The position numbers and the translations under genes were made by a program. This document shows positions 14,870-16,009 of a stretch of 64,000 nucleotides of DNA, one piece after another (position 1 is the stretch's first letter; every line of letters begins with the position of its first letter). This DNA is from Escherichia coli (GTDB lineage: Bacteria > Pseudomonadota > Gammaproteobacteria > Enterobacterales > Enterobacteriaceae): the NCBI RefSeq assembly GCF_044324875.1, contig NZ_CP172185.1, one strand, 5' to 3'. The notes under the pieces are model-generated. The model did no database searches, had not been told where the DNA came from, and was given only the letters and a program-made list of their open reading frames with translations.

Positions 14870-16009
14870 ATGAGCGCGGGAAGCCCAAAATTCACCGTTC
14901 GCCGCATTGCGGCTTTGTCACTGGTTTCGCTATGGCTGGCAGGCTGTTCTGACACTTCAAATCCACCGGCACCGGTCAGCTCCGTTAATGGCAATGCGCC
15001 TGCAAATACCAATTCTGGTATGTTGATTACGCCGCCGCCGAAAATGGGAACGACGTCTACAGCGCAGCAACCGCAAATTCAGCCGGTACAGCAGCCACAA
15101 ATTCAGGCTACTCAACAACCGCAAATCCAGCCAGTACAGCCAGTAGCTCAGCAGCCGGTACAGATGGAAAACGGACGCATCGTCTATAACCGTCAGTATG
15201 GGAACATTCCGAAAGGCAGTTATAGCGGCAGTACCTATACCGTGAAAAAAGGCGACACACTTTTCTATATCGCCTGGATTACTGGCAACGATTTCCGTGA
15301 CCTTGCTCAGCGCAACAATATTCAGGCACCATACGCGCTGAACGTCGGTCAGACCTTACAGGTGGGTAATGCTTCCGGTACGCCAATCACTGGCGGAAAT
15401 GCCATTACCCAGGCCGACGCAGCAGAGCAAGGAGTTGTGATCAAGCCTGCACAAAATTCCACCGTTGCTGTTGCGTCGCAACCGACAATTACGTATTCTG
15501 AGTCTTCGGGTGAACAGAGTGCTAACAAAATGTTGCCGAACAACAAGCCAACTGCGACCACGGTCACAGCGCCTGTAACGGTACCAACAGCAAGCACAAC
15601 CGAGCCGACTGTCAGCAGTACATCAACCAGTACGCCTATCTCCACCTGGCGCTGGCCGACTGAGGGCAAAGTGATCGAAACCTTTGGCGCTTCTGAGGGG
15701 GGCAACAAGGGGATTGATATCGCAGGCAGCAAAGGACAGGCAATTATCGCGACCGCAGATGGCCGCGTTGTTTATGCCGGTAACGCGCTGCGCGGCTACG
15801 GTAATCTGATTATCATCAAACATAATGATGATTACCTGAGTGCCTACGCCCATAACGACACAATGCTGGTCCGGGAACAACAAGAAGTGAAGGCGGGGCA
15901 AAAAATAGCAACCATGGGTAGCACCGGAACCAGTTCAACACGCTTGCATTTTGAAATTCGTTACAAGGGGAAATCCGTAAACCCGCTGCGTTATTTACCG
16001 CAGCGATAA
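14870..16009 (+). CDS. nlpD: Murein hydrolase activator lipoprotein NlpD (LysM plus M23 peptidase domain)
   Basis: 379 aa; lipoprotein signal [29 protein letters not shown]-rich repeat region; upstream of rpoS. Confidence 0.95.

Follow-up and report, generated by a model that had tools for sequence, protein, structure and literature searches.

In-frame length alleles of a Gln/Pro tandem repeat in the NlpD linker of Escherichia coli

Introduction

What is the Gln/Pro-rich tandem repeat that lies inside nlpD, does its length differ among strains of Escherichia coli, and would such differences concern the NlpD protein itself or the control of the neighbouring gene rpoS? NlpD is composed of a lipid anchor, a linker, a LysM domain, a second linker and a degenerate LytM domain; both linkers are predicted by DISOPRED to be disordered, and the LysM domain directs septal localisation of the protein (PMC5533458). 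It is listed among the outer-membrane lipoproteins with a disordered N-terminal linker (10.1101/2021.01.05.425367), and activation of AmiC at the division site is known for the K-12 NlpD, which is identical to the protein studied here (PMC5533458; 10.1101/2021.01.05.425367). At the same locus, transcription of the main rpoS mRNA begins inside nlpD, 567 nt ahead of the rpoS ATG, and a weaker nlpD-rpoS read-through transcript starts upstream of nlpD (PMC10948607).

Here we report a detailed analysis of this repeat in a 64,000-nt stretch of E. coli DNA (hereafter the window; RefSeq assembly GCF_044324875.1, contig NZ_CP172185.1), together with its length alleles in complete E. coli genomes and in a large protein collection, its counterparts in related genera, and its position relative to the rpoS promoter. 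A sequence-only reading of the window had drawn attention to the tract.

Results

The nlpD gene and its product

Both in the window and in the fetched E. coli loci the gene order is surE-pcm-nlpD-rpoS, with a conserved position of nlpD between pcm and rpoS; in the window a gap of 62 nt separates nlpD from rpoS (Table 1). The 379-aa open reading frame matches the NCBIfam model NF008123, 'murein hydrolase activator NlpD', over residues 4-379 with 679 bits against a cutoff of 311, a full-length match above cutoff that assigns it to the NlpD equivalog family, and it has the complete architecture of lipobox Cys, linker, LysM, linker and C-terminal LytM (M23) domain. By exact look-up in a public protein collection, its sequence is identical to that of NLPD_ECOLI. 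All nlpD differences between the window and K-12 DNA are thus synonymous; within the 231-nt linker region used for the comparisons below, K-12 W3110 and the window are about 4 nt apart (98.3% identity) and the protein is unchanged. For the N-terminal part of the protein, residues 1-234, no solved structure was found, and the PDB relatives DipM and EnvC match residues 235-379 only. An AlphaFold model based on a 32-sequence alignment gave the linker a pLDDT of 28-39, but the model was poor throughout (mean 33.7, with LysM poor and LytM below 35), so that it offers no support of its own for disorder.

An nlpD annotation is present in 5,421 of 5,426 complete E. coli genomes. The nlpD DNA of the window has no 100% match in these genomes, the best being 99.8%. 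For nlpD or its 231-nt linker region, 5 or 6 of the 5,426 genomes gave no match, and one genome carries the 231-nt region twice. In O55:H7 DEC5A the sole nlpD match is a spurious 49-nt stretch in flhA, and the gene seems to be missing from this strain.

The start of the gene is annotated in two ways. RefSeq/PGAP uses a TTG (14915), 45 nt downstream of the ATG at 14870, and obtains 364 instead of 379 aa, so each allele forms two protein series in the databases. The short form has 11 residues before the lipidated Cys and lacks a basic n-region, whereas the long form has the n-region KFTVRR, with a Shine-Dalgarno-like GGGGGA run just upstream of 14870; on these grounds the long form looks right.

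Table 1. Features of the nlpD-rpoS locus, in coordinates of the window.
Feature	Position	Strand	Evidence
nlpD coding sequence, 379 aa plus stop	14870..16009	+	ORF list, NCBIfam match, annotation
Signal peptide with lipobox L-A-G-C	14870..14947	+	read from translation
Lipidated Cys26 codon	14945-14947	+	translation; C26 invariant in 32 orthologues
N-terminal linker, residues 27-122 (96 aa), lipid anchor to LysM	14948..15235	+	no Pfam domain over these residues
Repeat unit U1, CAGCAACCGCAAATTCAGCCGGTA = QQPQIQPV, residues 66-73	15065..15088	+	repeat searches
11-nt exact direct repeat CAACCGCAAAT, first copy	15068..15078	+	exact-repeat listing, junction sequences
12-nt exact direct repeat CAGCCGGTACAG, first copy	15080..15091	+	repeat search, Z142-6 alignment
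Repeat unit U2, CAGCAGCCACAAATTCAGGCTACT = QQPQIQAT, residues 74-81	15089..15112	+	repeat searches
Repeat unit U3, CAACAACCGCAAATCCAGCCAGTA = QQPQIQPV, residues 82-89	15113..15136	+	repeat searches
11-nt exact direct repeat CAACCGCAAAT, second copy	15116..15126	+	exact-repeat listing, junction sequences
Perfect 9-nt tandem repeat CAGCCAGTA x 2 (QPV QPV), site of -9/+9 alleles	15128..15145	+	Tandem Repeats Finder, allele alignments
12-nt exact direct repeat CAGCCGGTACAG, second copy; tract end, QPVQ residues 95-98	15152..15163	+	repeat search
LysM domain, residues 123-165	15236..15364	+	Pfam PF01476, E = 2.7e-12
Inferred main rpoS promoter, TTGCGT, 17 nt, TATTCT (hexamers at 15471-15499)	15471..15506	+	hexamers read from sequence
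LytM / peptidase M23 domain, residues 279-372	15704..15985	+	Pfam PF01551, E = 4.6e-33
rpoS coding sequence, 330 aa	16072..17064	+	ORF list; annotated 3' of nlpD in all fetched loci

Structure of the repeat tract

The Gln/Pro repeat comprises NlpD residues 66-98, encoded by positions 15065-15163 on the plus strand. The sequence-only reading, which had given it as a Q/P-rich repeat at 15060-15165, was right to within 5 nt, and its placement in the NlpD linker is borne out by the position of the tract between Cys26 and the LysM domain. Three 8-residue units, U1 to U3, are followed by QPV and AQQPVQ, and Gln plus Pro make up 70% of the tract. A reading of the tract on the minus strand was rejected, as no minus-strand open reading frame of at least 60 aa overlaps 15060-15165.

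Two tools detected the repeat. At 15068-15132, Tandem Repeats Finder identified 2.7 copies of a 24-nt period (score 67, 70% matches), and a direct-repeat search returned three in-register 24-nt copies starting at 15065, 15089 and 15113. The copies had been described as near-identical nucleotide repeats, a description that does not hold at the DNA level, where U1 and U3 share 88%, U1 and U2 71%, and U2 and U3 62% identity; between U1 and U3 the only differences are three synonymous changes. The longest exact direct repeats within the tract measure 9-12 nt, the two copies of CAACCGCAAAT being 48 nt and those of CAGCCGGTACAG 72 nt apart.

The Gln/Pro tandem repeat exceeds chance expectation. Shuffling the residues of the 96-aa linker gave a 6-mer in triplicate, as observed here, in only 3 of 100,000 trials; when the 33-aa tract alone was shuffled, the proportion was 1.7%. 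At the nucleotide level, the match score at an offset of 24 was 33 of 48, against 20.9 +/- 1.8 in codon shuffles (about 6.8 standard deviations), and none of 5,000 codon shuffles reached it.

Length alleles in complete E. coli genomes

Linker length was compared across the 5,426 complete E. coli genomes, 5,420 of which contain the nlpD linker region; this was the check put forward by the sequence-only reading, for which an identical repeat number in all strains would have spoken against length polymorphism. Repeat number is not identical: tract length is non-standard in 73 of the 5,420 genomes (1.35%), and the remaining 98.65% carry one length allele with three units. Five variant lengths were found (Table 2). 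In all 73 genomes the reading frame is kept and the protein is full-length, every allele retains at least one QQPQIQPV unit, and every breakpoint coincides with one of the short exact repeats, namely the tandem pair of CAGCCAGTA, the copies of CAACCGCAAAT as the crossover site of the -48 and +48 alleles, or the copies of CAGCCGGTACAG as the end points of the -72 allele.

Table 2. Length alleles of the tract: complete E. coli genomes carrying each allele, and contigs encoding its protein in the protein collection.
Allele	Complete genomes (of 5,420)	Contigs, 379-aa-style form	Contigs, shorter PGAP-start form
-48 nt	59		
-9 nt	7	633	338
+9 nt	4	234	105
-72 nt	2	38	17
+48 nt	1	6	3

The -48 allele occurs on at least four SNP backgrounds, and its carriers include the O157:H7 strains TW14359, EC4115, SS17, SS52, JEONG-1266 and RM6067W; other O157:H7 genomes have the normal tract length. 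The +9 allele is found on two SNP backgrounds, the -72 allele in strains including Z142-6, and the +48 allele in PapRG-04-4. One of the +9 strains, Rb-50, has a variant rpoS beside its variant nlpD, with RpoS accession WP_244331677.1 versus WP_000081550.1 in the other fetched loci.

The way in which the alleles were counted bears on the totals. Against a normal-length allele, the -48 allele aligns as two overlapping pieces of about 97% identity and is thereby hidden in a census by identity bands; of the full-coverage rows obtained with the 231-nt query, 59 were sampled and all were of normal length. The counts of the -48, +48 and -72 alleles were therefore taken from junction-specific queries, which share no 28-mer with the normal-length alleles of the reference panel, so that megablast cannot seed on such alleles. 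These queries returned 62 genomes in total, of which 59 carry the -48 allele, two the -72 allele and one the +48 allele; none has a -57 or +72 allele. Likewise, no allele differing by 24 nt in either direction was found in these genomes with four mimic query designs, which covered deletion and duplication of the 24-nt unit as well as a loss or gain of 24 nt between CAGCCAGTACAG (15128) and CAGCCGGTACAG (15152); the mimic queries recovered the +/-9 and +48 alleles only. The absence of +/-24-nt alleles agrees with the low similarity between U2 and the adjoining units, with a 48-nt pair as the effective repeat. Examples of fixed anchors that delimit the tract segment of nlpD are ACGACGTCTACAGC and ATGGAAAACGGACG.

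An upper bound of about 92 records for the variant total follows from identity ranking with the 231-nt query. Eleven records, among them Rb-50 (94.6%), lie at 90-95% and one at 80-90% identity to this query, and a few alleles may have escaped the census among those other than Rb-50. The known +/-9, -48 and -57 alleles have more than 95% identity to the query, and the results of the mimic queries speak against a change of 9-24 nt in array length on a similar background; an abundance of SNPs or differences in the flanking sequence may account for these records. When the Escherichia whittamii allele was used as bait for divergent E. coli records, nothing nearer than 91.7% was retrieved.

Such tracts had also been said to be prone to slippage, with a length that may vary between strains. 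The variation is real, as the 73 genomes attest, but the tract is not hypermutable, given that its DNA copies have diverged. A single allele predominates, and changes by one unit were not seen.

Alleles in the protein collection and in Shigella

Exact look-ups in a collection of about 15 billion proteins recovered the variant proteins in both start forms (Table 2). A 363-aa NlpD (-48 nt, -16 aa) is found in Shigella dysenteriae, Shigella flexneri and Shigella boydii as well as in E. coli, and the DNA of this allele has its 48-nt junction inside CAACCGCAAAT. A 360-aa NlpD (-57 nt, -19 aa), found in E. coli draft genomes, combines the -48 deletion with the -9 change. By protein length, the alleles form a series of 355, 360, 363, 376, 379, 382 and 395 aa, and between one and five copies of the unit are found in E. 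coli and Shigella. Apart from incomplete entries (truncated or flagged as partial), the variant proteins in the collection are in frame.

In the -48 locus of S. dysenteriae CP026828.1, rpoS (locus positions 1755-2292) is represented by two open reading frames of 29 aa and 277 aa, compared with 330 aa in the window, which suggests that the gene is disrupted in this strain.

The linker and the unit across species

Among 81 Enterobacteriaceae the N-terminal linker measures 82-106 aa (median 92), and PQIQPV-like and QPVQ-x-NGRIVY motifs are almost always present; PQIQ itself was found in 64 of the 81 orthologues. An alignment of 32 orthologues shows full or almost full conservation of P68, Q71, Q85, Q90, P96 and V97. 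QQPQIQ is present in three exact copies only in Escherichia, namely in E. coli, E. whittamii and two further species. There are four units in Escherichia albertii and about two, in degenerate form, in Citrobacter and Salmonella, and small genus-specific expansions occur elsewhere, such as four QPV in Kosakonia cowanii. As unit numbers differ among genera, the tract therefore grows and shrinks slowly over evolutionary time. Across genera, no part of the linker is less conserved than the middle of the tract.

Within the tract, the peptide is better conserved than the DNA, as seen both in the purely synonymous differences of U1 and U3 and in a protein that equals NLPD_ECOLI despite the differences from W3110 DNA. 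Together with the recurrence of the PQIQPV and QPVQ-x-NGRIVY motifs across genera, this hints at a possible sequence constraint beyond that on 'any flexible spacer'.

Position of the tract relative to rpoS

The sequence-only reading had noted that the tract lies upstream of the rpoS 5' region, the major promoter of which sits within nlpD. The geometry is correct, but the statement carries no functional content. Counting 567 nt back from the rpoS ATG at 16072 places the main start at about 15505, a computed position that agrees with the hexamer pair of Table 1, and the tract ends 340 nt upstream of it. At this distance the tract lies outside the main rpoS promoter and is absent from the main rpoS mRNA, being part of neither the promoter nor the 567-nt leader; it is present in the bicistronic nlpD-rpoS transcript only. 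A consensus scan of 14700-16150 detected no promoter-like site, although the same scan also missed the published rpoS promoter. In an Rfam search of 14000-17300, no RNA family was found in or near the tract, and the sole match was a sub-threshold one after rpoS. In Salmonella Typhimurium UK-1, a 12-bp in-frame nlpD deletion was judged by its authors to lie outside the rpoS promoter (PMC3391293). We found no demonstrable link between the tract and rpoS control.

Several further elements were noted around rpoS. Positions 15250-15275 of the minus strand, within nlpD and about 90 nt downstream of the tract, contain a terminator-like hairpin and a T run; two terminator-like sites were found in the scanned region against 1.7 expected, which is chance level. 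The sub-threshold Rfam match, to ctRNA_p42d at 17078-17118 (+; 28.7 bits against a gathering score of 50, E = 0.0018), begins 14 nt past the rpoS stop and is most likely the rpoS terminator hairpin. Directly after rpoS, the minus strand encodes a MarR-family regulator (17185-17625; Pfam MarR, E = 3e-12), followed on the plus strand by a flavoprotein of the UbiX/Pad1 type (17739-18332; PF02441, E = 1.7e-44). These two reading frames we take to be one of the known strain-variable fillings of the rpoS-mutS interval, a filling that is absent from K-12.

Discussion

We consider it highly probable that the tract is the Gln/Pro middle of the NlpD tether, formed by in-frame unit duplication and subsequent drift, with rare misalignment at short repeats producing near-neutral variants and with the main rpoS promoter uninvolved. 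The tether links the lipid anchor at Cys26 to the peptidoglycan-binding LysM domain and to the degenerate LytM domain, the activator of the amidase AmiC. The tract itself would have originated by in-frame duplication of an 8-codon unit, of which there are about two degenerate copies in related genera, three in E. coli and the cryptic Escherichia clades, and four in E. albertii. Later synonymous drift would have reduced the DNA identity of the copies to the present 62-88% and left exact direct repeats of 9-12 nt, and misalignment at these repeats, whether by replication slippage or by short-homology recombination, may cause the occasional changes of +/-9, +/-48 and -72 nt. As all changes are multiples of three, the tether only becomes 3-24 residues shorter or longer, and the gene is never switched off. 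The repeat, its protein context, the series of alleles, their breakpoints and their frequencies are observed, and the slippage mechanism and the neutrality or near-neutrality of the variants are what we infer; the length polymorphism is coding, of low frequency and probably near-neutral.

Residues 66-98 are best read as a part of the flexible tether, and the natural alleles, which change this 96-residue segment by 3-24 residues, probably have little effect. Linker length matters in the lipoprotein RcsF. It also matters in Pal (PMC12826056), the disordered N-terminus of which has been described as a 'molecular ruler'. Pal and NlpD are alike in having a disordered tether in a division-related outer-membrane lipoprotein, the length of which could set periplasmic reach; the length effect has been shown for Pal (PMC12826056) and not for NlpD, whose natural tethers span 72-112 residues. 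By analogy, a loss of 16-24 aa could have a mild effect in NlpD. That the one-unit allele (-16 aa) alters NlpD sorting or AmiC activation, with an envelope or cell-separation phenotype that would make it a meaningful lineage marker, seems to us quite improbable.

The least improbable alternative is that the 8-residue unit acts as a short linear motif, for example one recognised by the Lol pathway, by peptidoglycan or by a partner at the division site, or else a polyproline-like ruler, with copy number under selection and the variants adaptive or deleterious. Such a role would agree with the conservation of amino acids over DNA, most evident in U1 and U3, with the frequency of PQIQ and the (near-)invariant residues among orthologues, with the retention of a full QQPQIQPV unit and the terminal QPVQ in each natural deletion allele, and with the occurrence of the -48 allele in Shigella and across a whole group of O157:H7 genomes; moreover, the N-terminal linker of NlpD, when fused on its own, is weakly enriched at mid-cell (PMC5533458). 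Selection on copy number is difficult to reconcile, however, with one to five copies in otherwise healthy E. coli and Shigella lineages and with a tract whose middle is the least conserved part of the linker. The published deletion, after which the inner membrane retained about 60% of the NlpD and cell chaining was not fully rescued, removed residues 29-64 and thus ends just short of the repeat (10.1101/2021.01.05.425367). We regard a selected motif or ruler as unlikely; a weaker rival, in which the unit would be a functional motif of which one copy suffices, is kept alive by the better conservation of the peptide than of the DNA.

Two further explanations do without a role of the peptide. The repeat could act as a DNA or RNA cis element on rpoS, through the internal nlpD promoter or the read-through transcript, so that its length would tune RpoS, and the tract is indeed transcribed in the bicistronic mRNA (PMC10948607) and situated upstream of the internal promoter. 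Against this stand the 340-nt distance to the inferred main start and the absence of the tract from that mRNA, the lack of an Rfam family across the region other than the sub-threshold match after rpoS, the promoter scan, albeit one that did not see the published promoter, and the like judgement on the Salmonella UK-1 deletion (PMC3391293); such a cis effect is very improbable. Finally, there could be no true repeat at all, only a chance pattern in a Gln/Pro-biased low-complexity stretch, with assembly errors passing for length variants. The composition of the tract and the 1.7% of tract shuffles that reproduce the triple 6-mer lean this way, yet in-register 24-nt copies came from two tools, and the linker shuffles and codon shuffles place the pattern far outside chance. 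As for assembly, the exact alleles recur in many independent complete genomes with clean junctions at exact repeats, and the 72-nt array is far below the length of a sequencing read. The shuffle tests and the recurrent alleles with clean junctions refute this last explanation, the probability of which we take to be practically negligible.

The tether with near-neutral length variants can be set beside several known systems. Published work on the disordered linkers of RcsF, Pal and NlpD deals with the same protein and the same linker, an unstructured segment right after the lipidated Cys, and such linkers are reportedly needed for efficient Lol-dependent sorting and let folded domains reach the peptidoglycan (10.1101/2021.01.05.425367; PMC5533458). 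Those studies consider the linker as a whole or delete residues 29-64, whereas the present analysis is about the repeat (residues 66-98) and the natural alleles that differ in its length. We found no paper on an nlpD repeat polymorphism in E. coli, O157 or Shigella, and the only related report was that of the 12-bp deletion in Salmonella UK-1. With at least two head-to-tail copies beyond chance and a copy number that differs within one species, the tract is of the VNTR type, and it resembles other coding repeats of this type, including that of Salmonella UK-1 nlpD (PMC3391293), in consisting of head-to-tail multiples of 3 nt in an envelope-protein gene with the frame kept. Compared with VNTR typing loci it is much less variable, its copies have diverged, and changes take place at 9-12-nt exact repeats and not unit by unit. 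Phase-variable contingency loci are likewise repetitive DNA subject to strand misalignment; in contrast to them, the NlpD tract has units of 9, 24 and 48 nt and neither switches a gene on and off nor affects promoter spacing, and as all of its variants are multiples of 3 nt it does not belong among loci that shift the frame or the spacing of a promoter.

The protein NlpD, the disorder of its linker and the location of the rpoS promoter were established before, and the window encodes the reference K-12 protein; the allele series is a small addition to a known protein and a known kind of sequence, with little significance for wider biology. For strain typing the tract has little to offer, since one allele is found in 98.65% of genomes, and indels within it should not be counted as changes of the rpoS promoter. 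With its frequencies and breakpoints, the allele series provides a set of natural length variants with which the length of the NlpD tether could be tested.
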